DNA of 64,000 nucleotides from Chloropicon primus (lineage: Eukaryota), in the NCBI GenBank assembly GCA_023205875.1, contig CP060765.1, forward strand, positions 558,001 through 622,000, read 5' to 3'. Shown one piece after another: positions 3,012 to 17,222 of this stretch (positions within the stretch are counted from its first letter, which is position 1; every line of letters starts with the position of its first letter). A program made the translations under genes and the position numbers. The notes below the pieces were generated by a model that saw nothing but the letters and a program-made list of their open reading frames with translations, searched no databases and was not told where the DNA came from.

Positions 3012-4289
3012 TTACATCATGAGTAGTCTGGAGCAGTCGCAGGGCATGAACTTAACCTCCCTCCGATCAAATTCGACGAGAAAGTTTTCGAGCATGATGG
3101 AACCAAGGTGGACCTCGTTCCCCTTGCCCTTGCTCAAGAGCAGGCAGAACGCTTTCCTCGGCGCCGGTCCAGATCCCCTGCCCTGGTACAAGTACGCGTT
3201 CGGCCCTAGCGTCATTGTGGCGTTGGGGAAGACCAAGCGCATTGGTGGGAAATCGCTCAGGCTCAGCTCCTCGCCAGCCTTCGAGCCCGTGAAGCAGGTG
3301 GTTCTCAGCGGCGGTCCGCCCTGGACCTTCACCCCCGCCAGAGGGGCCAAGGCCTTCTCCAGCTGCTCGGTGAGCACAGAGTGCAGCCCAGGGGGAACAT
3401 AGGAAAACGTGCTGCCAGTGTCGATGATCATGGTGTAGGACCCTTGCTTCCTCGGGTTGTGGGACGACAGCGGCCCAACGTGCAGCCCCTTGAGCGGAAC
3501 CCCGTGGAGGTGCTTCCTCCCCCTCCTGCTCCGCACGTATGGAACGGATATTCTTTTGCCGCCCAGGCAGCTCGACTTGACCCAGTCCCAGTCCTCGTCG
3601 ATCCTTCCCACCGCGAGCACGCCCGTCGCCTTTGCCGGGCACACCGAAAAAGCTCCGCTGCCCTCCCCAAGCTGGTTTATGAGGGACAGCTTGCTTCTCG
3701 ACAAGCCGAGGATCCCGTCGGCCTTCTGAGAATAGATCAATCCGGACTCGGTGGTGCTGCATCCGAACGTCACCTTGCCACGCAGCGTGCTGTTCCTCGG
3801 CCCAAGCCTCACCACGTCCGACAGCAGCTTCCCCCCGGATGCGCTTCCCTCCGCGTACCGGATCTCGTAGTAACACTGGTTGTGCGAGCACTGGCAGTGC
3901 ACGTTGCCGCACTGGCAGTCCGCCCTGCGGTGGTGCTTGCACCTGACCGATCGGGCTGTGTTGGACTCCTCTGCCGAGAACTTGGCCCTCGCCATGTGCT
4001 TGCCACATTTCTTGCAGTTGGTGCAAGGGACGTAAGTCAAGCTCGACCCGGTGTCCACAATGAGCTCAAACTCCCTCTCAGGGCCCGACCCGAGCGCCAC
4101 GGTGGTCGACAGGTACGACTCCAGTTCTGGTCGGTGCAAGCGAGCTGCCACGACCTGCTCCGCCAGCGACCGGCCCTCCGCTTCATCCCCGGTCACGCCT
4201 CTCCTCTCGAGGGGCAGCAAGACGAAGCCTAGGCTCCCCGAGGTCGCCAGCAGGACGAGCAGGATCACGGCGAAGCATATCATCACCAT
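3012..4289 (-). CDS. Secreted pepsin-like (A1 family) aspartic protease
   Basis: Signal peptide MVMICFAVILLVLLATSGSLG; two catalytic motifs LIVDTGSS and IIDTGST; FGCS..ADGILGL; Cys-rich nepenthesin-type insert. Confidence 0.88.
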   Translation of the reverse strand: MVMICFAVILLVLLATSGSLGFVLLPLERRGVTGDEAEGRSLAEQVVAARLHRPELESYLSTTVALGSGPEREFELIVDTGSSLTYVPCTNCKKCGKHMARAKFSAEESNTARSVRCKHHRRADCQCGNVHCQCSHNQCYYEIRYAEGSASGGKLLSDVVRLGPRNSTLRGKVTFGCSTTESGLIYSQKADGILGLSRSKLSLINQLGEGSGAFSVCPAKATGVLAVGRIDEDWDWVKSSCLGGKRISVPYVRSRRGRKHLHGVPLKGLHVGPLSSHNPRKQGSYTMIIDTGSTFSYVPPGLHSVLTEQLEKALAPLAGVKVQGGPPLRTTCFTGSKAGEELSLSDFPPMRLVFPNATMTLGPNAYLYQGRGSGPAPRKAFCLLLSKGKGNEVHLGSIMLENFLVEFDRREVKFMPCDCSRLLMM

Positions 4290-4612
4290 CACAAGTGAAG
4301 CTTCAAGTCCAAAAGGTCCTCCGCGAGAACCTCCGCGTGGCAGGAGACCCTGAGCTCCCTCGGTATCAGCACGGTGCCCACCTGCCTCGTCCTCGCCTTC
4401 ACCTCCACCTTTTCCCGTCCACCCTCGAGCTCTATCAAACGCTTGGGCTCCCCCTCCACAGCGTTGCTCAGAATGATGTTCCCCTGCTTGTCGAGGCAAG
4501 TCAGAAAACCCTGGACGGTCCGCCCGTCATCGAGGTGGACGAAGACTCTCTTGTTCACCAGAGAGGCTCGCGCCTTCTCCACCAGCGTCCCTCCTCCCTC
4601 CTCCTTCGACAT
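4289..4612 (-). CDS. NAA38: Sm-like protein, probable NatC auxiliary subunit (LSMD1/Mak31)
   Basis: Sm1 motif VFVHLDDGRTVQGFLTCLDKQGNIILSNA and Sm2 motif RQVGTVLIPRELRVSC. ATG at 4612. Confidence 0.75.
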   Translation of the reverse strand: MSKEEGGGTLVEKARASLVNKRVFVHLDDGRTVQGFLTCLDKQGNIILSNAVEGEPKRLIELEGGREKVEVKARTRQVGTVLIPRELRVSCHAEVLAEDLLDLKLHL

Positions 4613-4879
4613 AAACACCAACCTTCCTCCTTGCCAAGCCCTTCGTCCCCTCCTCTCTTCTGAGAGAAATGGTGGATCGAGGAGATCGCCGAGGATGGAA
4701 CCGAGGACGAGAGGGATGGGAGGCCACCATGTGATGTCGGAAGCATCTTCCCGTGATCTTTCGAAAGAGATCCTGAATTGAAGAGGAGAGCGTTTGATCA
4801 GCAGCAGTTTAGGTTCTGGTCTGCGATGTCAAAATACATAACGTTTTTTGTTGTTGTTGGTTTTTTTGGTATTTTTCTT

Positions 4880-7800
4880 CTAGGAGTGATTCTTGACGAA
4901 GAGGCCCAGGAGGTCTGCAATGTCCAAGCTGCTCTTCAAGTGATGCTTCGCAAGGGAGTGCTTGCGGCCCACGGTGCAGGTGGTGATGTGCTTGGGACAG
5001 CCCCCGAACGTGGCGGCGAGGGTGGGCAGACCCTCCGCGAACTCCTCGGTGGGCTTGTCAAAGTAGCTGAACAAGTCCTCGTCGCGGTGCATGAAGTGAC
5101 CCGCGCAGAGGATGAAGTCTGGCTTGATCGAAGTCGCCTGGGAGATGGCCTGTATGATCCTTTGCACAGTCCCTCCCTTGGTAACCCCGAGGGGGCGGGC
5201 CTCCACCGACTTTGCACCTCGCAGGATCTCCACCTGCGCGTTGCTGATGGAACCGGTCCACAGGTGCTGCAGCATGTCCCTCATCTGGTTCCTGCCAAAG
5301 TCAATGTCGGCGTACTTGCAGTTCCAGACCAACGAAGTCTCCCTGGTGTCCACGTAACTCCTCGGAGTTCTCTCGCAAAAGTAATCGAAAACGAGTTGGA
5401 CGCTCTCCATCCACTCCAGGTTGACGTTCTCGAGCACGAGCTCCCACTCCTTGAAGGGGGGCTTGAGGAAGATCCCGTTCTCAGCGGCCAGCCACACGTT
5501 GACGCCCTCGAAGATCCTCTCGAGCTTGTAACGCTCGCTCCCGCTCACCACGAGAACCTCCGTATCCGGCTGAGACACGATGCTGCTCAGGTAGCTCTTG
5601 ACCTCCTCGCTGATTTGAGTCAGGGTTCGTATCTGGTCGAACTTGTGGTGGTGGTTGGCCTGCGCCTTTGGATTGGCCGAAGTCGTCAAGGTCGCGTTGT
5701 AGCCCATCACGATCAGTCTGGACTTGCTCGTTCTGTAGTGATCCGCCAGGGTGAAGATGTTCAGCTTCGGCGGAATGTGCATCGTTCGAAGCGCCGCCTC
5801 GATGTGAGTGTCGTGCAGCTCGCTTATGAACGTCTCCCCCCAAGCCTGGGCGGTGTGAACCTTGACGTGCATGAAGTTCTGCCTGTGCCTCTGCTGCCTC
5901 TCCCCGTCGCTCATCTTGAGGGCATAAGCAATGGCGTTGGAGAGCTCGTTCACATTGTAGGGGTTGCTGAGGATCGCACCGGCCCCAAGGCTCTGGGCGG
6001 CTCCTGCAAACTCGCTCAGGACGAGGACGCCGGGGGACTCCTTGCTCTGGCACGCCACAAACTCGTAGCTCACGAGGTTCATGCCATCCCTGAGAGAGGA
6101 GACCACGAGAACGTCCGTGACGGAGTACAGGGCGCAGAGGTTGTGGAAATCCAGAGAGCAGTCAAGAAAGTGGATGGGGTTCTGCGTCAGGGACCCGAAC
6201 CGCCCGTTGATCCTTCCCACCATCTCGTGCACCCCGCTGGTGAGCTTCTGGTACTCTGGCACGTCCTTCCTGGACGGCACCGCAATCTGCACCAGCAGGA
6301 CGTGGCTCCTCCACTCCGGATTCTCCTCCAAGAACTTCTCGAACGCCAGGAGCTTCTGTGGTATTCCCTTAACCATGTCAAGCCGGTCCACGCCAAGCAG
6401 CACTTTCCTTCCGGAGAACTGGCCCCTCATCTCGAGAATCCTCGCCTGCACGCTGGGGGTATCGAGCTCATTGATCCACTTGTCCGGGTCGATCCCGATG
6501 GGAAAGACGGCCACCCTCGTGATCGTTCCCATGTGAGCGTTCTCTATCCCGTCCAAGGTGCCCTCCAGTCCAAGAATCCTGCAGCAGGACGAGACAAAGT
6601 GCCTGGCGTAATCGTAGGTGTGGAATCCCACGAGGTCCGCCCTCAACACGCCCATCAAGATGTCGTCTCTTTGGGGCAAAGTCCTGAAGATCTCCGAGGA
6701 GGGGAAGGGTGTGTGGAGGAACCAACCCACCTTCATGTCCGGCATCTCCTCCTTGAGCAAAGCAGGCAAGAGCATCAGATGGTAGTCGTGGACCCAAACT
6801 ATGTCCCCTTCCTGGTACTGCGACATCACGGCCTTCATGAACTCCTCGTTGGCCCTCTTGTAAGCCTCGTACTGATCCTGCACCGTCTCGGTCTCCGAGA
6901 GCGTGCCCTCCTGCTGCAGGGCAATATAATGAAAGAGCTGCCAAAGGATACTGTTGCAGTAGCCGTTGTAGAACAAATCTGTGGTGTCCGCATCCAGGTA
7001 GACTGGGCAGCAGTCCTTCTTGCCGAAAGCCTCCTTCAGGCTCTCCCTCTCGGTCTCCTCGATGAACTGTCCCGGCCATCCGACCCAGGTCAGGCTGTAG
7101 CCCTCCACGCAGGTGAGTGCAGAGACGAGCCCCCCTGGGCTGACCTGCAGCTTCCAGTCTCCCGCGAGCCCCTTGAAAGCGCTGAAAGGCAGCCTGTTCG
7201 CAACAATGATCAGCCTTTGCTCCTTCCCCGAGTCCATCATCCCAGAAAGTGCCTGCGCCTGCGCCGGGTCCACGCCCACCCCGTGCGCCGGGTCCACGGC
7301 CATGGGCAGGGGGCCGGGCCCGCTGATCCTCATGCCCTTGTCCTTGACGAGCTCATTGTTCATCGTCTCCTGGCCGAGGAGGACCAGCTTGTCCGCGCTG
7401 AAGTTCCTCCAGTCCCCGAGCAGGCTCGAGTCAGAATTCTTCTGTGGCGCGAAGTTGAGCGCGTCCCTCTGCCCTATCTTTGGGGCCAGCCCACCTAAAT
7501 TCATGGGCGACTTCGACCTGGTGCGCAAGGGAAGCTGTGACAGCTCCGCCAGGTTTGTCGAACTGCCAGCACCCCCTGCTCCAACCATCCCCATCCCCAC
7601 CTGGTTGTTCAGCCTGTGACTCAGCGAGATGCTGTCCGAGTCGCTCTGCCTCCTCTTGCTCGGGCTCGCCTTGAGCGGCGACGTCGAGCCCCTCTCCGCC
7701 CCAAGGTAGGCCGAGGTCCCACCGGAACCGGAAGCAAGCCCCCCTTCCATGCCCTCGTTTCCGCTCCCACTGTTCCTCCTGTTCAAGCTGGTCGCACCCT

Positions 7801-8095
7801 CTCCCGGCGATGCTGCGTCCTTCCCCACCCCACCCCCTCCACCGCCACCCCCTTCCCTTTTCGCCGCATTCTGCAACGTCCCCAGCGACTGGCTCCTCCT
7901 CATCTGCCTCTCCCTCAGGAGTCTATCCACCCGCGTCGAAACGTTGCTGAACGGTCCCACATGACTCGTCGTCGCTTGCTGCTGTTGCTGCGGAGGCAGA
8001 GGCGGAGGCGGCATCTCCGCGGCCTGGTTCTCCCCTATCCTGTAGATCACAGGCGTCCCCCCCTCCCCCCCTTCCTCGCCCCCTTCCTCGTTCAT
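4880..8095 (-). CDS. TPS1: Class I trehalose-6-phosphate synthase (GT20 plus degenerate TPP domain)
   Basis: RLIIVANRLP, VWVHDYHLMLLP, FLHTPFPSSEIFR, GVDRLDMVKGIPQK, DGMNLVSYEF, LSEFAGAAQSL. TPP-like GYNATLT. Long low-complexity N-terminal extension. Confidence 0.93.
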   Translation of the reverse strand: MNEEGGEEGGEGGTPVIYRIGENQAAEMPPPPLPPQQQQQATTSHVGPFSNVSTRVDRLLRERQMRRSQSLGTLQNAAKREGGGGGGGGVGKDAASPGEGATSLNRRNSGSGNEGMEGGLASGSGGTSAYLGAERGSTSPLKASPSKRRQSDSDSISLSHRLNNQVGMGMVGAGGAGSSTNLAELSQLPLRTRSKSPMNLGGLAPKIGQRDALNFAPQKNSDSSLLGDWRNFSADKLVLLGQETMNNELVKDKGMRISGPGPLPMAVDPAHGVGVDPAQAQALSGMMDSGKEQRLIIVANRLPFSAFKGLAGDWKLQVSPGGLVSALTCVEGYSLTWVGWPGQFIEETERESLKEAFGKKDCCPVYLDADTTDLFYNGYCNSILWQLFHYIALQQEGTLSETETVQDQYEAYKRANEEFMKAVMSQYQEGDIVWVHDYHLMLLPALLKEEMPDMKVGWFLHTPFPSSEIFRTLPQRDDILMGVLRADLVGFHTYDYARHFVSSCCRILGLEGTLDGIENAHMGTITRVAVFPIGIDPDKWINELDTPSVQARILEMRGQFSGRKVLLGVDRLDMVKGIPQKLLAFEKFLEENPEWRSHVLLVQIAVPSRKDVPEYQKLTSGVHEMVGRINGRFGSLTQNPIHFLDCSLDFHNLCALYSVTDVLVVSSLRDGMNLVSYEFVACQSKESPGVLVLSEFAGAAQSLGAGAILSNPYNVNELSNAIAYALKMSDGERQQRHRQNFMHVKVHTAQAWGETFISELHDTHIEAALRTMHIPPKLNIFTLADHYRTSKSRLIVMGYNATLTTSANPKAQANHHHKFDQIRTLTQISEEVKSYLSSIVSQPDTEVLVVSGSERYKLERIFEGVNVWLAAENGIFLKPPFKEWELVLENVNLEWMESVQLVFDYFCERTPRSYVDTRETSLVWNCKYADIDFGRNQMRDMLQHLWTGSISNAQVEILRGAKSVEARPLGVTKGGTVQRIIQAISQATSIKPDFILCAGHFMHRDEDLFSYFDKPTEEFAEGLPTLAATFGGCPKHITTCTVGRKHSLAKHHLKSSLDIADLLGLFVKNHS

Positions 8096-8493
8096 CGCCT
8101 CGCCTCCTCTCTTTCGTCGCCAAACGCCTCGCTCCTCTCCCGCCCAAGGCCAAGGGACGCGGGGACGGGGCGGGCGCGGGGTGAATACGCGACCACTCCA
8201 CTCGACGCTTCGTCTAAAGGGCTTCCGAGCTCGTACAGGCCTTGCGACGCGACGAGGCTCGGTATTGGAACACGCTTGGACCACACCTCGCTGAGGCGGA
8301 GAGGGAGAGGGAGCGCGTTTGATGGACAACCTCAATCGATGCCAGTGTTGGTCGGAAGTTTTGAGATGTTATAGATGGACAGGTTCGAGTGTGCGTGTTG
8401 TCCGGAGGCCGTGTGACTGCGCGGCTTGATGCGTCTCTGTCGGGGAAGCGGCTTGGGTTCGTTTGTCCGGCGGAGCGAGGGTTGGGGGGAGAG

Positions 8494-10803
8494 ATGGCGG
8501 AGGCGAAGCTGATTGACTTGGGTGGGGGCGAGGTGGTCGTGGTGGAGCTGGAGGAGGTGAGAGAGATGGTGCGGCGCCAGTGGGGGGCGGAGGGGGTGGA
8601 ATGCAGCCGCGTGCGATGGGTCGCGACGGGGGAGGGCTACGTGCTGTGGGGGGGACCGGGAAATGTGCACGGGGACGAGGAGTGGGAAGCCTTCGGTCTC
8701 ATCGCTGTGGGGGGGAGGACGCCTGCGGAGTCGGCTCGAGAGAAAGGGACTACCTGCGGTGCGGGCGTTCTGAAGTGGGTGTGTGCCACCCAGCTGCGGA
8801 AGGGCTGGCGAATCTGTGAGTGGGACGAAGGCGCTGCATATGTCGCAAGCGGTCCCACTGCGGTCGTAGGAGTGGTTCACGTCGGCACGGCGTCAGTGGC
8901 GGCCGCGGTGCTGCTGCGCGCTGGGGGAGAAGAGACTCCCGGGTGGGAGACCAAACTTTACTGCTTCGGCCCCCAAAAGCATTTCAGGGTGCTCGCTGTC
9001 GATGGTTTCGGGGCCAAAGGCCTCGGTCCAGGAGCAGAGCAGCGTCTCCAGTGCCTGGTTGCATTGGACGAGGACTTCGCGATGACCACCGTACGGACGC
9101 CCGAGGGCGGAGCACCTGGCAGCGAGCGAAGCGGGGCAAACGCACTGCTCCTACCTCCAGCGAAGTTGGCCCAACGCACGACTCAGGCTCTGGTTGTGGG
9201 CGCAGGAAACGGTGCATCAACGTCCACGCCAGACTTGATTTTGGCCACCCGGGAGGGGGAAGTCGCGTGCGTTAGAGGAGGGGTAATTCTGTGGAAGGCC
9301 TCGCTCGGGGTCGAAGGGAGCAAGTTCAGCAGAATCGTTCGGCTCGCCCCGGGCGGCCTCGTTATCTTTGCAGAGTTCTTGGAAAAGTCGCGAATGGGTT
9401 CGATACGGTCTTTCAAAGGATTTGGATTGGGTTCTCAATCCTGCTCCGTCGTTCCCTCTGCGTCAGAACGTGTGGAGATCATCCCCCAAAGCCCAAAGTC
9501 GTTGGGCAGTGGCGTTGTGGCATTGTGTCCGCGACGGGCTGCAGGGGGGCAGCCCGGTGTGACTCCATTGAGCTTCAAGGGAAAGGATGCTCTCGCTTCA
9601 ACGCTTTCTGTTATGCGCTGGGAGGCAGCAGAGGCGCCATCGCCACACCAAGATGAGAACGAGAGTGAGAGTGAGAATGGTAACGCCCAGGACCTGCTTT
9701 CAGAAACGATTCGCTCCAGACTCGTGGAGGAGTTGGACGGGCTCTTGGAGCAGGACAGACAGCGCCTTGACATGGGCGCGATGCTCATGGATTCCAAGGC
9801 GAGGCTGAACGATTGGGCTCACAAGGCCATGTGCGGGGCTTTCAAGCAGGAGGGCAGGCTGCCTAAAGCATTGAAGAGATTTGATCTGGGGACCAGCCTC
9901 AAGTCGAGCATCCTTGTCACGGCTCTTGAAGGAAAGTATGTGGCAGATTCCTTCGTGGTTTGTGGCCGGTTGCGCTTGAGTGACGATGCCTCGGGCAACC
10001 CCATGGACTTCCACATCGTCTCTGCCATTGCCCTGCTGAGCCCTGCACCTTCTTCGGAAACCACCGCGGTGGACTCGTTGTGCAAGAGGGCTCAGTGCAC
10101 GAAATTGAGCCAGGATGCGGCCTACGAGTTCGAGATCCGCATCGATGTCCAGGCTTTGGTCTCTTCGGGTGACCTGGCTCGGGACTCCGGGACCTCGTCC
10201 TCCCTTCGCGTCTTCGTCTGTGGATTCTGCTTGGCCTACGGGGAGGACGAGAGTTCCGAGGAGGGCGATCACTCGCCCTCCTTCACCCAGTCGTGCGGCT
10301 ATGCCACGGACCTCGCGGGCGGGGACACGGCATTCACCCACTACATTGGCAGAGTTGCCATCGATTTTGGGAAGATTATGACAAGAACAGACTTGGTTGA
10401 AGAGGGTCCTGCCATCCCGTACAGCATTCAGGACTTACCTTACAAGATGGAGATGACCTTGACGGACAAGGAGTCGGGGCATCCCGTGAGCTCCGCGTGG
10501 AATCGTTCGCTCCACTTGTCCGCTTGTCTCGAATCTTTTCTGGGGAGAACGGCAAAAAGTGAGGCAGGAAACCTTCTGGTTTGCGCTCGGTCCATCCATT
10601 ATCTGCCTCTCTTGGTGGAGTGCGTTCGCAAGAGCCTCGCGCGTGTCGACGTCGAAGCATGCCCATGCCTCTGCTCTTACGAGAACTTGGACTCCTTCCA
10701 CCACGCCAGCCTCTCCCTCGAACACGAAATCATTTCTTGGCTTGAAAACAAGCCGGTGAGCAGGAGGAGGACCGACGAGGCGTTCTCCTCCTGCGTGTGG
10801 TAA
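8494..10803 (+). CDS. Uncharacterised 769-aa protein (beta-rich N-half, coiled coil, beta-sandwich); possibly FANCB-like
   Basis: Long ORF with TGTAA at 10823-10827. The architecture is only suggestive of FANCB. Confidence 0.55.
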   Translation: MAEAKLIDLGGGEVVVVELEEVREMVRRQWGAEGVECSRVRWVATGEGYVLWGGPGNVHGDEEWEAFGLIAVGGRTPAESAREKGTTCGAGVLKWVCATQLRKGWRICEWDEGAAYVASGPTAVVGVVHVGTASVAAAVLLRAGGEETPGWETKLYCFGPQKHFRVLAVDGFGAKGLGPGAEQRLQCLVALDEDFAMTTVRTPEGGAPGSERSGANALLLPPAKLAQRTTQALVVGAGNGASTSTPDLILATREGEVACVRGGVILWKASLGVEGSKFSRIVRLAPGGLVIFAEFLEKSRMGSIRSFKGFGLGSQSCSVVPSASERVEIIPQSPKSLGSGVVALCPRRAAGGQPGVTPLSFKGKDALASTLSVMRWEAAEAPSPHQDENESESENGNAQDLLSETIRSRLVEELDGLLEQDRQRLDMGAMLMDSKARLNDWAHKAMCGAFKQEGRLPKALKRFDLGTSLKSSILVTALEGKYVADSFVVCGRLRLSDDASGNPMDFHIVSAIALLSPAPSSETTAVDSLCKRAQCTKLSQDAAYEFEIRIDVQALVSSGDLARDSGTSSSLRVFVCGFCLAYGEDESSEEGDHSPSFTQSCGYATDLAGGDTAFTHYIGRVAIDFGKIMTRTDLVEEGPAIPYSIQDLPYKMEMTLTDKESGHPVSSAWNRSLHLSACLESFLGRTAKSEAGNLLVCARSIHYLPLLVECVRKSLARVDVEACPCLCSYENLDSFHHASLSLEHEIISWLENKPVSRRRTDEAFSSCVW

Positions 10804-10843
10804 AGGATGGGGAGAGCAAACGTGTAATAAAATCATAATTCCT

Positions 10844-11758
10844 TTACTTTTCGTCCCTGGTGCTCATGACTCGCGCTGCACTGTCAACGGAGACTACTCG
10901 TCCAATCATCGACGGGTCCACTACCCCGTTCCAACCGAAGAAGGGGACGCGATCCCACTCCTTCCTCCCGTACTCTGCCTTCTTCCCCGAGTGAATCGTA
11001 GTCAGAGCCTGGAGTGGCTGCCTCCCCGTGCCTTGGCCAGCCTCCTGATCGACTGTGGTGACGGTGCAGCGGGAGCAAGGCTTCACCAGGTCAAAAATCG
11101 TTGGCTCCGCGGATTCTATTTGTATCTGCTTGATCCTATCCTCCACGAAGGGCTCTCCTAGCCCCTGCAGAACCACGTTGGCCCGAAACCTGTCCATGGG
11201 CACCTTCTCGTCCCCCTGCAGCTCGAGTTGATCGTTCACCGCATCCAGGGACTCCCTCGTGGCCACCAGGAACGGAAACCCGTCACTGAAAGCCGTCTGG
11301 CCTCGGGGAGCAAAGCCTTCCTCGGTTCTCCTGGTGCAGTCCTCGTTGAACCGCACGAGTCTGCAAGGAAACTTGACGAGTTTTGTGAAGAAATCCGCTG
11401 CCTCGTCGCCCTCATCCAGGCACCCCTCCGCCGTGAAGGACCACACCGTGGCCTTCCGCCTCGCCAAGCCCCCAACTCTTTCTTCCAGTGGCACCTCGAG
11501 CGTCCTGTCGTCCACGGAGACCGTCAAGGCCCCCCTCACCGCCGTCGGGTCGGAGATCGTCAAGGCCTCCACCGGAAGCGCCGTCCTCACCCTCGCCAGC
11601 TCTGGACACTTCCTCTGCGTCACCATCCTATTCTTCTCCTCGTCCACAACCATCCACTTCCTGTCGAACCGGAACCCATTCCTCTCCACCAAAGCTTGCC
11701 GGGCGCTGATACCGCCGCAGCTCTTGATGGGATAGATGTGCACCGAGTGAACCGACAT
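10844..11758 (-). CDS. MOSC-domain protein (mARC-like)
   Basis: HIYPIKSCGG, DRKWMVVD, FSDGFPFLV, MDRFRANVV, KPCSRCTVTTVDQ. Confidence 0.9.
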   Translation of the reverse strand: MSVHSVHIYPIKSCGGISARQALVERNGFRFDRKWMVVDEEKNRMVTQRKCPELARVRTALPVEALTISDPTAVRGALTVSVDDRTLEVPLEERVGGLARRKATVWSFTAEGCLDEGDEAADFFTKLVKFPCRLVRFNEDCTRRTEEGFAPRGQTAFSDGFPFLVATRESLDAVNDQLELQGDEKVPMDRFRANVVLQGLGEPFVEDRIKQIQIESAEPTIFDLVKPCSRCTVTTVDQEAGQGTGRQPLQALTTIHSGKKAEYGRKEWDRVPFFGWNGVVDPSMIGRVVSVDSAARVMSTRDEK

Positions 11759-12070
11759 CCTCCTCCTCTTCCAAACAAACAAACAAACAAACAAACAAAC
11801 AAACAATCAACAATAGAACGAATGCCAGACCAGAGTCCCGTCCTTTGTTGCTGTCGTCGCACGCCCGAGAAGCAGGAGCAATCCCGTGCACCAAGGTATG
11901 AATCGAAAGCCCGTGAGACGCCCTTCCGTCCCGTGCCCCTTTCCCCTCGCCCCACGCACAAGCTCCTCCCTCCACAATCGTTCAAGAGACCCACAGACCT
12001 CGCTCTCTCTGTTTCCCGCTAAAAAAAAGAACAGAAACTTTGGCGGGAACGAAGGAGAGAGGAGCAGAGG

Positions 12071-12919
12071 ATGGAGGTAGGAGTGACGAGGAGGGCGGCG
12101 AGTGGATTGCGAGGGAGGAGGAAGCTTGCGCGGTGGAGGGGATCCCGTCGCGATGGTAGAGTGAGACTGTCGTGCACGGCGTCGTCGTTGGATGAGTGGA
12201 ATGGGGTCTGCTTAAGTCAGGCTTGCCAAGCTGCGAAGAATCAGGCGACCCTGCTCGCGACGACTGGCCCCGTTGGGATGCTGGCAGCGTTTGGATTGCT
12301 GAAGTGGAACCAGGCGGGGGAGGAGGGGAGCGCTTCCAGCAGCGGGGCTTCGGTGGAGGGGTCTCCAGGGGAAGAGGAGGAGGAGGGGAGGGTGGTTGAG
12401 ATGGAGACCGATGTCTATGGCTTGGATGGCTATCGGCTGACTCGAGTGCCCAGAGGCTCCCCCGGCGCCAGGCTAAAGATTCTTTTGCCGGATATGGAGC
12501 GGCCGAGAACTTTCTACTTTGCTGAAACCGCAAAGAGGAAGAGCGTCGTGTTCGCCACGACGGTGGAACGGCCGGTGGGCATCGTCTTCGGGGAGTCTTC
12601 TGAGGGCAGGGTGGTCATCACCCAGGTCGACAAAGGCACGGATGCTTACAGGAAGTCCCAAGTCGCCAAGCTGGGGGAGGGTGATCGATTCTCTGCGCCG
12701 GAGGTGGGCGACCGCGTCCGCGCCTGCTCCTCCATCAATTTCTTCTACTCGCAGGCTTCCCTCTTTGGCGTCAAGCCTCCCGCGAGAACTGTAGTGCTCT
12801 TCGGAACGGAGGGGAAGTCCTTCGACGAGTTCTGCTCCGCTCTCTCCAAGTCCCAAGTGAGCGACGGGGACCTGACCCTCGTCCTGGAGAGAGACAAGGA
12901 GGAGGAGTCATCGCGATGA
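12071..12919 (+). CDS. Probable plastid protein with C-terminal PDZ-like domain
   Basis: Arg/Ser-rich transit-like N-terminus; VERPVGIVFGE..VVITQV..VGDRVRA..LTLVLER PDZ-like pattern. TGTAA at 12955-12959. Confidence 0.6.
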   Translation: MEVGVTRRAASGLRGRRKLARWRGSRRDGRVRLSCTASSLDEWNGVCLSQACQAAKNQATLLATTGPVGMLAAFGLLKWNQAGEEGSASSSGASVEGSPGEEEEEGRVVEMETDVYGLDGYRLTRVPRGSPGARLKILLPDMERPRTFYFAETAKRKSVVFATTVERPVGIVFGESSEGRVVITQVDKGTDAYRKSQVAKLGEGDRFSAPEVGDRVRACSSINFFYSQASLFGVKPPARTVVLFGTEGKSFDEFCSALSKSQVSDGDLTLVLERDKEEESSR

Positions 12920-13335
12920 ACCACGCCCACGCACTTCTGTTTTGTATGTATACATGTAACGTAGGTCTGTCCAGGCATCCCCCTCCCCTCAGCCCAGTAC
13001 TATCGATGCTGGCAGAAGACGGGCGACGCTGGTGCGGGCAATGCCCATCCAAGAGACCTCCCTCTCCCCTCCTCTCCCCTGTCTGCTTCCCCCTTGGATG
13101 ATGATGATAGGCTGGGTGCTGTCCCTCAGTCCAGTCCAGTGGTGTGAGACTCAGCTGGCAGAAGACCAGAGTTGTTGGAGGTTTTCCCCTGTTGGTGGGA
13201 TTCCAGTGTATACCAGTTTGGTCACACCCAAAGGACAACCCACTAAGCGTTTTCTCGTGTTCTCACTTGCTGGACAAGGCCAATCTATAGTTACGAGGAG
13301 TTACGAGGAGGGCAGCGAGTGAAACCCTAACAGTC

Positions 13336-15507
13336 ATGGCGCGATCAGGGAAGCGCCGTAAGAAAAAGGAGAAGCAGGGGAGTGGCTCGACGAGTTCCAC
13401 AAGGAGGTCGCACTCTGGCGAGAGTCATGCTCAGGGCGCTTCGAAGTCGGGGCAGGAGTCTCCGACGACGGAGCGGCCGTTACTTCCGTTCTGGAATCAG
13501 GGCTTGCAGTTGCTCTACGCGTTGTGCCTGCTTCCTACCGCGGACGACCCCGCCTCTGCGGGTGAGGGTTCGAGCACGCCTCGCAAGAAGCGGGGGGGGA
13601 AGCGGAAGGAGAAGCCGCTGGACGACCCCGCCTCTGCTTTCGAGGAGGGTTCGAGCACGCCTCGCAAGAAGCGGGGGGGGAAGCGGAAGGGGAAGCCGCC
13701 GGAGGCGGACGCCTCTGCGGGTGAGAGTTCGAGCTCGTCAGGCAAGCCTCGCAAGAAGCCTCGCAAGAAGGGCAAGAAGAAGAACAAGAAGAAGGGCAAG
13801 AAGAAGAAGAACAAGAGGGGGAAGAAAGCAGGGAAGCAGCCGGGTGGCTTGGCGGACGACAGCGTGAAGAAGACCTGGTTCTCATCGATCAAGAGAGAAC
13901 TTGAAGAGGTAAAGTGTCCGAAGACGGGATGGAGGTCGTGCTTGAACCTTCCAGAAGATTCTGTGGTATCCGTCGAGACATTGCAGTCGCCCGCCAAAAG
14001 GAAGAGGGAGCAGAAACTGAAGACCTCCAAGCTATTGTCGGAGCGAACGGTGATACGGACGAGGAAGCTTAGGATGCGCTTGAACCCTGAGCAGGCGAAG
14101 TGCCTTTGCAACTGGATGGGAGCTGCGCGTTTCACATACAACAAGTGTTTGGAGGCGGTCAAGAAGGAGGGTTTTCCGCTGGTTTGGACCGTCCTGCTGG
14201 ACAGATTTGTGACGGCCAAACCGCGACGCCCTGAGGTCTTTGAGGGGCTGGAGAAAGAGCTGAAAGAAATCCAATGCTCTCCACGGCCATGGACAAAACA
14301 GGAGGCAGAGCTTTTCGCGGCCAGAGAGAAGAGACTCGAGAGCCAAATTGGAGGCAGACGATTTCGCGCCGAAGTGGCCAAGGGCCGGGACTACGTTAGC
14401 GGGGCCTTTGTGAATCAGGAGCATCCTTGGCTGAAGGAAACCCCCTGTGCCATCGGACAAGCTGCCGTGCGAAGTCTGATCAAGGCATGGGATTCGAACA
14501 TCGCGAAGCAGGAAGCGATGAAGGAGCGCGGCGAGGAGAAGGGGCACCGCTTCGTTCTCAAGTATCGTCAACGTCAGCAACCGAGTTCTTGGACTATTGA
14601 AATTGATGCAAGAGAGTTAAAGAACGTGGAGACGATCGAAAGACCGAGAACGAGGCACAAGGATGACACGAAGCACAAGAAACGACGCAAGTGGACCAAG
14701 CTGGAGGTGTTCAAGAAGAAGATGGCCGGCGGGCCCCTGTACTTGACGGAGGAGGTCCCCGGGGGCAAGATCGAGGGTGCCGTGAAGATCACAAGAAATC
14801 GCCTTGGGCAGTTCCACATGCACATTCCCATCGCGACGCCATGGGATCGCCTGCCACCCCTGAAGCCTGAGAACAAGCGGAAGGTTGTCGCCCTGGATCC
14901 GGGAGTCAGGACCTTTCAGACGTCGTACTCGCCGCAAGAAGGCGTCGGGGAGTATGCCAAGGGCGAGCGAGGCTTCGCGAGGCTGTTCAACCTCTGCTGG
15001 AGGATTGATGAGATCATTTCCGAGCGCAAAGACCCAAAGGTGAAGCTCCCTTACCTCGACCGCCGCGACTTGAAGAGACAGCAATACGCCTGCATGGAGA
15101 AAATTCGAGGTCTCACTAACGAGCTTCACAAAAAGGTAGCCAACGATCTATGCAGGAGGTTCGACACAATCCTCCTCCCGGAGTTCAAGTCCCAAGACAT
15201 GGTGAAGAAGAACAACAACGGGAGACGCCGAGTGATCAGGAAGAAGACGGCTCGCACGCTCTTGACGTTGAGGCACTATGCGTTCAGAACGTTCTTGGCT
15301 TCCAAGGTGCTCTTGCACGGCAGTGAGCTGGCGATCGTGACGGAGGAGTACACCTCCAAGACCTGTGGCAGGTGCGGACACATCAAGAAGAACCTGGGTG
15401 GAGCAGAGGTGTACAAGTGCCAGAAGTGTGGCTTCAAGTGCGGTCGGGATGTGAACGGGGCACGCAACGTCCTCCTGAAGCACTTGCGTCAACCAAAAAG
15501 TGTGTAA
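13336..15507 (+). CDS. Fanzor2 (eukaryotic TnpB-family) RNA-guided endonuclease, 723 aa, intronless
   Basis: N-terminal PFWN..LLPT..TWFS; RTRKLRMRLNPEQ..WMGAARFTYNKCL; HPWLKETP; RuvC-I VVALDPGVRTF (D521); RuvC-II ILLPEF (Pro615 at the canonical Glu) with downstream VTEEYTSKTC (E670); Zn finger CGRCG..CQKCG; RuvC-III GRDVNGARNV (D705). Confidence 0.93.
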   Translation: MARSGKRRKKKEKQGSGSTSSTRRSHSGESHAQGASKSGQESPTTERPLLPFWNQGLQLLYALCLLPTADDPASAGEGSSTPRKKRGGKRKEKPLDDPASAFEEGSSTPRKKRGGKRKGKPPEADASAGESSSSSGKPRKKPRKKGKKKNKKKGKKKKNKRGKKAGKQPGGLADDSVKKTWFSSIKRELEEVKCPKTGWRSCLNLPEDSVVSVETLQSPAKRKREQKLKTSKLLSERTVIRTRKLRMRLNPEQAKCLCNWMGAARFTYNKCLEAVKKEGFPLVWTVLLDRFVTAKPRRPEVFEGLEKELKEIQCSPRPWTKQEAELFAAREKRLESQIGGRRFRAEVAKGRDYVSGAFVNQEHPWLKETPCAIGQAAVRSLIKAWDSNIAKQEAMKERGEEKGHRFVLKYRQRQQPSSWTIEIDARELKNVETIERPRTRHKDDTKHKKRRKWTKLEVFKKKMAGGPLYLTEEVPGGKIEGAVKITRNRLGQFHMHIPIATPWDRLPPLKPENKRKVVALDPGVRTFQTSYSPQEGVGEYAKGERGFARLFNLCWRIDEIISERKDPKVKLPYLDRRDLKRQQYACMEKIRGLTNELHKKVANDLCRRFDTILLPEFKSQDMVKKNNNGRRRVIRKKTARTLLTLRHYAFRTFLASKVLLHGSELAIVTEEYTSKTCGRCGHIKKNLGGAEVYKCQKCGFKCGRDVNGARNVLLKHLRQPKSV
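13543..13780 (+). repeat. Tandem duplication (78 nt, 81 nt, plus a degenerate third copy) inside the Fanzor CDS
   Basis: DDPASAGEGSSTPRKKRGGKRKEKPL (13543-13620), DDPASAFEEGSSTPRKKRGGKRKGKPP (13621-13701), EADASAGESSSSSGKPRKKPRKK. Confidence 0.9.
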
Positions 15508-15681
15508 CTCCTCAGGGTTGCACATACGTTTGTTAGTACGGGCTGCCGTGCGTGGGCGGAAGTATTCGTTCATGTACGGTGGAATGGTCGTGGTAGGGCT
15601 GAATTACCCTGCCGAGAAACTTACAAACTCGGTGAAACGACCTTTGCAGAAAACTAACAGGTAAGTTGTGGCCGGTCTTCG
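15508..15681 (+). ncRNA. Candidate Fanzor omegaRNA (scaffold to about 15661, guide about 15662-15681)
   Basis: 18-bp hairpin 15543-15560/15565-15582 with 7 G-U pairs; multibranch domain 15586-15642; long-range stem 15529-15537/15653-15661; located directly 3' of the Fanzor CDS. Confidence 0.7.
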
Positions 15682-16021
15682 CTCTCCGTGTTTCTCTCTT
15701 TCAGTGGAAAGGAGAACTTGCCTTTGTGCTTCCAGTATTGACTGTGATTTTCTTACCGTCCTTTCGTGACTTTTCTGTGTGCTGTTTTTGATCTGATGTC
15801 TGAACACCATAACAAGAGTTGGTGAGGAGGAGGGCGGAGGGCAACGAAGGGGAGGGGAGCCATGAGGGAGGGGGCGAGAGGCGTTGCCCGGCAGGGAGGA
15901 GGATTCATTTTCATGCCCGTCGAGCCTTGGGTGGTGGCGTAGAACAAGACAGCGAGATCACAGGCAGAGAGAGAGACAGAGAGAGAGACAGAGAGAGACG
16001 AGAGACAGAGAGAGATTTTAG

Positions 16022-17222
16022 ATGTATGAATCGCCTTCGTTCGCGGTGCTTCCTCCGGTCGCTGCCGGGGGCGCGCCTCCTGCTGGTGCGGGACAGAGGG
16101 AGGGGAAGATGCAAGTGGCTCCCTTCGTCGCAGTAGCGTCCGCACTCCTCTACGGGGCCGTCGCCATCGCCATGAACTTCGTCAACAAGGCGACGCTCAT
16201 GTCTTTCCCTCTTTCCGGTACGATTCTTCTGCTGCAGATGTTCATGGGGATCGTCATCGTCAAGACTCTGGCGGCGTTGGGGCTCGTTCAGCTCAGTCGG
16301 AACAGCCTGAGGGTGAAGAAGGCGCTCGAGCTCCTCCCGCTTTGCTTGCTGTACAACGGAAACACGGCAGCGGCTCTCATGGGCTTGAACAGGGTGCAGG
16401 TTCCTGTCTACAGCACGGTCAAGAGGCTGACACCCATGCTGGTCCTTGGGGTGAAGGTGTGCGTGATGAGGAAGAGGCCGCACCCTCACGTTCTGACATC
16501 GGTAAGTGGATGCTCTCCCACCGCTTAGGCTCTGGACTAACAAACACACACACACACACACACGCCCGTTCTCACACGCCCGTTCTCTCTCTCTCCTTCT
16601 CCTGTATCAGGTGGTGTTGGTGGTTGCTGGCTGCGTCGTGGCGGGTGCCGGGGACCTCAGCTTTGATGCGGCAGGGTACACACTTTCGTTCATGAGCTCG
16701 TTCTTCCAGGCCGCGTACCTTCTCGTGGTGGAGCACACGGGGGCGGAGAAGGGGGTGGGGTCCGCGGAGCTCCTGCTGTACAACTCGGTGCTCTCCCTGC
16801 CGTTCTTGCTCTTGCTGGTGGTGCTGACGGGGGAGGTCTACCACATTGGGGAAGCTTACAGGGATGCGACCATCCAGGGATCACTTTTTCCACTGCTTCT
16901 GCTCTTGTGCTCGTGCATGGGCTGCCTGCTCAACTACTCCATATTTCTTTGCACGATAAACAACTCTGCTCTGACCACAACGATCGTCGGGGTGCTCAAA
17001 GGGGTCTTGTCGACGCTGCTGGGCTTCTTCCTCCTAGGGGGCGTGAGGTTCAGCTGGCTCAACGTTGTGGGAATATTCATGAACACGTTGGGAGGCTGCA
17101 TGTACACGGCGGTGAAGTACAGGCAAAAGCAGGCAGCCTTGAGAAAGAGGGCGACCGGGGAAGGAGAGGAGAGACTGCTTGGGGGCGCGAATGGGGAGCG
17201 CCAGCACGAGCATGCCGTCTGA
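16022..17222 (+). CDS. Nucleotide-sugar transporter (SLC35D/GONST-like); exons 16022-16501 and 16611-17222
   Basis: MNFVNKA, VPVYSTVKRLTP, LLLYNSVLSLP, LNYSIFLCTINNSALTTTIVGVLK. GTAAGT..GACTAAC..CAG intron restores the frame. Confidence 0.88.

Follow-up and report, generated by a model that had tools for sequence, protein, structure and literature searches.

The 64,000-nucleotide window of the Chloropicon primus genome analysed here holds, on its forward strand, a gene for a Fanzor2 protein of 723 amino acids within a multicopy transposable element, and behind that gene what is very likely its guide RNA scaffold and a sequence that is predicted to be an intron spanning the right end of the element (Table 1). 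Does decoding of the open reading frame, which fills the element, yield a plausible nuclease? Its N-terminus consists of Lys-rich repeats, and in Pfam it matches TnpB domains only. On an alignment, from which the residue numbers were counted, the RuvC1 DPG motif is VVALDPG with D521, the RuvC2 glutamate is E671 (TEEYTSKTC), six residues ahead of C677 of a zinc finger whose four cysteines are present, and the RuvC3 aspartate is D705 (GRD). Read in this way the catalytic residues D-E-D are intact; a DPG motif and a shifted glutamate form part of the definition of Fanzor2 (PMC10711439). The best match in the PDB is 9B0L, a mimivirus Fanzor2 (E 8e-20, the next of the 14 matches being at 3.7e-08), and that comparison places the protein nearer to Fanzor2 than to any other TnpB or Cas12 protein of solved structure. 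Its protein cluster has 46 members, open frames with D-E-D intact are present in many copies, and 25 copies per genome have been reported (PMC6731263). Within the gene an 81-nt tandem unit at 13538-13759 codes for a Lys-rich, NLS-like stretch, and the number of units varies by copy, being three in the protein P0126, with one skipped in the sequencing run X4. About 200 nt downstream of the element, and on the same strand, is a nucleotide-sugar-transporter-like gene (16022-17222).

Table 1. Features of the Fanzor2 element and of the sequence bordering it, in window coordinates
Feature	Position	Strand	Basis
Left target-site duplication copy, AGAGT (5 bp)	13168..13172	+	sole AGAGT in 12901-13340, TGTT directly after
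Element left end, starts TGTTGG	13173..13335	+	degenerate inverted repeat of right end
Fanzor2 gene, 723 aa	13336..15507	+	ORF calling, domain matches, alignment
Predicted omegaRNA scaffold	15500..15660	+	fold, and same layout in L022, L023 and L024
11-bp hairpin across stop codon, 15500-15510/15515-15525	15500..15525	+	pair probability 0.9-1.0
Long-range closing helix, 5' strand GTTAGT	15532..15537	+	6/6 Watson-Crick in 4/4 sequences
18-bp hairpin, 7 G-U pairs, AGUA loop	15543..15582	+	pairing check, shuffles
Second inner hairpin, GGUAGGG/CCCUGCC	15592..15613	+	pairing check, relatives
Closing helix, 3' strand ACTAAC, and terminal AG (scaffold end)	15653..15660	+	relatives; register from L024
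GT-AG intron, 156 nt, whole right end	15661..15816	+	shown in sister copy; predicted for window copy
Splice donor GTAAGT	15661..15666	+	CAG/GTAAGT at 15658-15666
Between-copy variable stretch	15667..15691	+	indels cluster at 15676-15691 (+16 to +31 from scaffold end)
Right terminus ...TCTGAACACCATAACA	15799..15814	+	loose ends of DNA contigs after 15814 and 15816
Right duplication copy, AGAGT	15815..15819	+	matches left copy
Predicted guide of window copy after splicing (host flank)	15817..15836	+	inferred

The limits of the element can be read from DNA contigs. In the DNA run X1 the flanks have a summed depth of 130-176, which jumps from about 154-176 to more than 6000 in the bin 13102-13235, and is 4000-15000 from there to the bin 15782-15915; long contigs of the DNA run X2 exit the window behind 15814 (n = 2) and behind 15816 (n = 3). 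The right end at 15814 reads ...CCATAACA and has a subterminal AAAGGAC in common with the left end. The element, 13173-15814, is multicopy, with TGTT...AACA ends and a 5-bp duplication, AGAGT, its left end at 13173 being placed by the duplication and the rise in depth and not by loose ends. There is no second copy within the 64-kb window, and no transposase was found in the element or among the 24 window ORFs scanned. The 5-bp duplication, degenerate inverted repeats, multicopy state and non-autonomy are all found as described for the Fanzor2* element of C. primus (PMC10711439; bioRxiv 10.1101/2023.08.09.552727), whose duplication a legend in the preprint calls highly variable, and the protein is 97-99% identical to Chloropicon primus proteins named IS605 transposase (P0002 in the PMC10711439 table). 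The element is already published; what is new is a highly probable intron that takes away its right end and whose donor falls precisely where the scaffold stops. A wider inverted repeat, 13057-13080/15848-15871, was discarded as the element end, being in the flank and beyond the mapped right end; a 25-mer of the right end has no match in viral contigs. Two minor forms may be recorded here. An internally deleted relative in X4 and X5 (window 13872-13939), in which 13939 is joined to a AACTAACGG-GTAAGTAGTGGC end, is without most of the gene and scaffold; the variants 13872C and 13895A, whose linkage to that junction is assumed, are at single-copy depth in DNA (149) and high in RNA (2331 in X5). 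A minority subfamily (depth 344 in X2, and seen in RNA too) differs near the stop-codon hairpin, at 15478-15547, and its contigs stop at 15547.

The omegaRNA scaffold that belongs to the upstream Fanzor2 very likely lies at 15500-15660, because the 18-bp hairpin there is beyond chance and the long-range helix covaries in three relatives; the 5' limit of the scaffold is at least from the stop-codon hairpin (15500). That a Fanzor omegaRNA-like structure was to be found here had been proposed in the initial annotation of the DNA, made by manual pairing, and both fold and relatives bear it out. The 18 contiguous pairs it drew, 15543-15560/15565-15582, form the longest such stem on either strand across the 64 kb, and none of 2000 dinucleotide shuffles reaches such a length (longest 15). 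It had also proposed folding on the + strand only, and the + strand fold does beat shuffles (z -2.91, with 2 of 200 as good), the - strand being at z -0.15. In the 15486-15681 fold the 18-bp hairpin and GGUAGGG/CCCUGCC have pair probabilities of 0.75-1.0. The latter had been drawn together with a second hairpin, CCGAG/CUCGG, inside an outer helix of GGUCGU 15586-15591 with ACGACC 15637-15642; all of these pairings are present, the outer helix having a probability of about 0.37 in the 15486-15660 fold, but CCGAG/CUCGG is hardly formed (about 0.01 in the 15486-15681 fold). A further proposal, CAGGGU 15513-15518 with ACCCUG 15606-15611 as an alternative or pseudoknot pairing, does have its six pairs but is improbable (0.00 in the 15486-15660 fold), because the stop-codon hairpin, overlooked in that annotation, occupies 15513-15518. 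The long-range pairing 15529-15537/15653-15661 stands, with nine pairs, two of them G-U, at a probability of about 0.7; in the predicted fold it is nested and not pseudoknotted. Rfam gave nothing better than E 1.8 on 12900-16100, and no group I intron. The scaffold is nearly invariant between copies, beside the variable stretch 15667-15691.

Where does the scaffold end? A metagenome scan gave four relatives, L022 to L025, out of 126 candidate stretches. Three of them (L022, L023 and L024), with 51-56% protein identity to the window Fanzor2, have a common layout: a hairpin at the equivalent place over the stop codon comes first, then a six-base strand plus AC, stems in the interior and a linker rich in A, and after these the complement of the six bases and two further bases, beyond which the sequence is unrelated. 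In L025 no matching scaffold is visible and it was left out of the helix count. Among the four sequences compared, three columns of the closing helix change on both sides (GC to AT, TA to AT and AT to GC), a covariation that comes from three relatives, a hand alignment and 3' strands chosen by eye; since MAFFT set the 3' ends out of register, the pairs were counted from their coordinates, and fixed-register probabilities for the helix overstate its significance. The contig of L024 holds further copies of the RNA, which match it as far as 3393, and of the flank, which match from 3392, an overlap from which it follows that the two bases after the helix are common to element end and target. The L024 register puts AG at 15659-15660 of the window. 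Because of the register with the three relatives, fixed by this duplication boundary, the predicted scaffold end is 15660, which is 154 nt inside the element. L024 has, in addition, two inverted gene-less omegaRNA copies upstream of its Fanzor gene (727-870 and 1313-1456) and a 272-nt duplicated flank (1047-1318, 3311-3662); both extra copies go on with AACACCATAA, ten bases identical to 15804-15813, which may be chance. The 29 and 99 stretches that motif scans for the helix picked out in viral contigs were set aside as chance, the Fanzor profile being found at 0 of 128 loci and in 25 of 25 controls. The DNA of another 21 distant viral Fanzor loci was too unlike that of the window to be of use (best E 0.06), and the helix count does not include them. 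The scaffold-end 18-mer has 21 matches in prokaryote genomes, with bacterial titles, unscreened.

The initial annotation had placed the scaffold end at about 15661, right within one base, and had the element end there as well, in a GG that would serve as the core of an IS607-type element, with the next 20 bases as a flank-derived guide contiguous with the scaffold in the DNA. L022 and L023 do end in AACGG followed by unrelated sequence, as that reading would have it. Yet DNA depth runs on to 15814, and so does the identity from copy to copy, the check it had named, 153 nt beyond where it should have stopped; in place of a GG core at 15660-15661 there are TGTT...AACA inverted ends with a 5-bp duplication; neither the ORF list nor Pfam has a serine recombinase gene in the element; and in the published accounts the element is given as non-IS607 (PMC10711439; bioRxiv 10.1101/2023.08.09.552727). 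The 20 bases are the 5' end of the intron, starting GTAAGT inside the element, and 154 nt of element separate scaffold from flank. An IS607-type end at 15661 is hardly credible.

What RNA does the element give? X4 and X5 are recognized as RNA because both skip a host intron of 109 nt, 16502-16610, which is thereby confirmed and whose donor is equal to the CAG/GTAAGT at the scaffold end. In X4, X5, X6 and X7 (four runs from three studies) RNA contigs end or branch at 15660-15662, the long contigs of X4, X5 and X7 ending at 15660 and X6 exiting at 15661. Among those listed there are at least four different foreign continuations after 15660, none of four being in the window, and because one begins with T the break lies between 15660 and 15661. 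Across it the RNA depth, for which contig depth is a rough and poor proxy of level, falls from 1888 to 105 in X5, 1280 to 170 in X7, 282 to 34 in X4 and 28 to 0 in X6; DNA run X2 keeps 2677 of about 3570 at 15667. Among the rows listed for X2 and other DNA contigs none has a loose end at 15660-15662; a further 3 rows of one table and 66 of the other lie outside those listed and might hold such a branch at 15660 in DNA. For one sister copy both forms are seen: GATGGAATCGAG... is found unspliced in X4, after AACA-AG (47 loose bases), and spliced in X6, where it comes directly after ACTAACAG (G plus 46 loose bases). The sequence missing in X6 begins with GT, ends with AG and would be 156 nt, beside a reported mean intron of 152-154 nt (PMC12301720); its acceptor AG is the first two bases of the duplication, as predicted for the window copy also. 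A host-consensus GT donor, an AG acceptor (in one sister copy), absence from RNA and presence in DNA are what was found of a U2-type intron. No perfect CTAAC occurs in it on a branch-point scan, which gave five imperfect candidates such as CTGAT 20 nt before the AG. The scaffold's own 3' helix strand, ACTAAC (15653-15658), is the branch-site-like word of the host intron at 16536; lying upstream of the donor, it cannot serve the 15661-15816 intron as branch site.

That the right end is spliced from sister-copy transcripts as a GT-AG intron is, on these grounds, highly probable. Could the RNA branches instead be template-switching artefacts, or come from genomic copies that are without the right end? 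A genomic flank could be assigned to one junction only, and there the two sides overlap by 3 nt (AGG); taken alone that junction could be a deletion, though the remaining exons and the DNA run speak against it. The run types, moreover, were guessed by a tool, and the loose ends considered are those listed. But the same break recurs in three studies with several exons, one of which starts with T, and a perfect GT-AG; no branch is among the listed DNA rows; and X6 is without cover of 15662-15814 or 13102-13503, which the DNA of a multicopy element would have. An artefact is very improbable. For the window copy splicing is predicted from the sister copies, its own joint table being empty, and the RNA and DNA contigs of four runs are without cover of 15831-16010; absent cover past 15830 proves nothing. 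Spliced contigs extend 817-1555 nt into host sequence, like plain read-through mRNAs. A back-splice from 15662 to 13778 in X5 was rejected, as the same contig (depth 240.7) goes 1555 nt into foreign sequence and 13778 is low-complexity; an internal acceptor at 15703-15704 was rejected also, no such joint being found. In the public gene models P0135, P0004 and P0146 the Fanzor frame is fused to downstream host exons, one of them SET-domain-like; transcripts that read through and are spliced into neighbouring genes would agree with this, though it may be annotation error instead.

If the right end is removed, the base that follows the scaffold comes from the host. Of five long DNA contigs that reach beyond the right end, three go on with AG (P 0.003 for an AG frequency of 0.072; a small sample), as do the window copy and two RNA flanks; the other two DNA flanks and one in RNA (TGGAT...) do not. 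Copies with no AG flank would splice further out, and their guide would then match filled and empty alleles alike. In the window copy the triplets preceding the guide would be CAG at the empty site, AAG at the filled junction and CAG at the internal junction. A CAG motif would tell the empty from the filled site, to judge from this one copy; 3-nt motifs reported for Fanzor2 proteins are GGG, CCG and TAG (PMC11832414, PMC10432273). With CAG at the internal junction as well, unspliced RNA could cut the element itself. Seven of the ten indel rows within 15470-15814, several of which stem from one contig, start in 15676-15683, or +16 to +23, and cuts by Fz2 are reported at about +17 to +19 (PMC10432273); slippage at local CTCT repeats explains these indels as well. 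When the scaffold is folded with a 20-nt tail, the helix probability is 0.004 unspliced and 0.037 spliced, 22 of 150 random tails being as low; the difference flips sign with the 5' start, and the spliced tail is not favoured.

The reading preferred here, at a probability of roughly 0.62, is of a Fanzor2 scaffold carried in a multicopy inverted-repeat transposon, with splicing joining scaffold to host flank and likely making a working guide. That the spliced RNA is such a guide is, taken by itself, probable and is inferred. An IS607-type cassette would have been captured by a TG...CA element whose new right end was placed between scaffold and flank, and the intron would restore the ancestral scaffold-plus-flank layout. 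AG would take the role of the dinucleotide shared by end and target. The omegaRNA would be trimmed from the 3' part of the spliced mRNA; TnpB RNA is trimmed from mRNA, the matter being described as open for Fanzors (10.1101/2023.11.20.567912). Fanzor might then cut empty sites behind a motif whose last bases are AG (for the window copy CAG would fit), repair from the filled allele would keep the element, and cutting of empty sites would promote its retention. More speculatively, unspliced RNA could direct Fanzor to cut within the right end of the element itself and leave indels at +16 to +23. The fullest form of the proposal, a split guide RNA assembled by the spliceosome, with targets starting in AG favoured so that the element's duplication provides the splice acceptor as well as the last bases of the TAM, and with splicing deciding between a homing guide directed at the flank and a scarring one directed at the element, has about even odds.

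Splicing may be real and yet antagonistic or incidental, giving the Fanzor mRNA a host 3' end, with the omegaRNA coming from intron-retaining RNA and its guide from the internal sequence starting at 15661. Intron-retaining contigs do exist in X4, X5 and X7, at about 6-13% of the upstream depth; 15667-15691 varies between copies and both sides of it are conserved; and in IStrons splicing and guide function are reported to be mutually exclusive (10.1101/2023.11.20.567912, PMC13565253). But the first six bases of an internal guide are fixed by the donor, and its sole match found is the element itself: it has no exact match in viral contigs and none elsewhere in the window at up to 3 mismatches. 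A donor on the boundary to the base, and flanks starting with AG, are left unexplained, and an internal guide is unlikely. Less probable still is that the scaffold is a disused relic of a captured IS607 cassette, with RG/GT at its old end made a donor by chance. IS607 element ends finish in GG, half of the donor context, which lends this some appeal; against it are the open frames with intact D-E-D in many copies, transcription of the element, and the near invariance of a scaffold that has a variable stretch beside it.

Were splicing of the guide confirmed, it would be seen, for one lineage, how a TnpB-type nuclease captured by a transposon can remain programmable although the transposon end misses its RNA, and each insertion is predicted to be able to splice into, and alter, adjoining host transcripts. 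More immediately, the analysis sets right where the scaffold of a compact green-algal Fanzor2 ends and offers a guess at its TAM. In the main texts of PMC10711439 and bioRxiv 10.1101/2023.08.09.552727 and in the text of the journal supplement the string 'splic' has 0 matches; figures (2, 4A, S3) and the preprint supplements may hold an RNA model. In the literature searched, which covered few subscription papers, no report was found of a TnpB or Fanzor guide being formed by the spliceosome, and the part of PMC10530073 available has introns within Fanzor coding genes only.

How, then, does the element compare with known systems? PMC10711439 predicts that repeat and duplication are within the Fanzor2* scaffold; the window scaffold stops 154 nt short, and the transposon end would be spliced out, whereas in published accounts of other Fanzors it forms part of the scaffold fold. 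ApmFz2 (PDB 9B0L), NlovFz2 and MmeFz2 are alike in having the RNA 3' of the gene, long stems and long-range pairing to the last scaffold bases, which in ApmFz2 pair with the 5' part (PMC11832414); the last scaffold bases of the window may be the equivalent. In those three, however, the guide is contiguous with the scaffold in the DNA and that of the window would be discontinuous. By its ends the element is like TG...CA integrase-type transposons, IS481EU having TGT...ACA ends and Ginger2 a 4 or 5-bp duplication (PMC10045372), but there is no transposase in it and it was not placed in a superfamily. A transposon end that is at once splice site and part of an omegaRNA has a parallel in IStrons (10.1101/2023.11.20.567912, PMC13565253). 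These, as described there, are bacterial IS605/IS607 elements that carry a group I intron capable of self-splicing, in which the whole element is removed and splicing excludes the guide. For the Chloropicon element splicing is spliceosomal, the right end alone is removed, and splicing would create the guide: if true, an RNA-guided nuclease with a guide assembled by the spliceosome, the reverse of IStrons.
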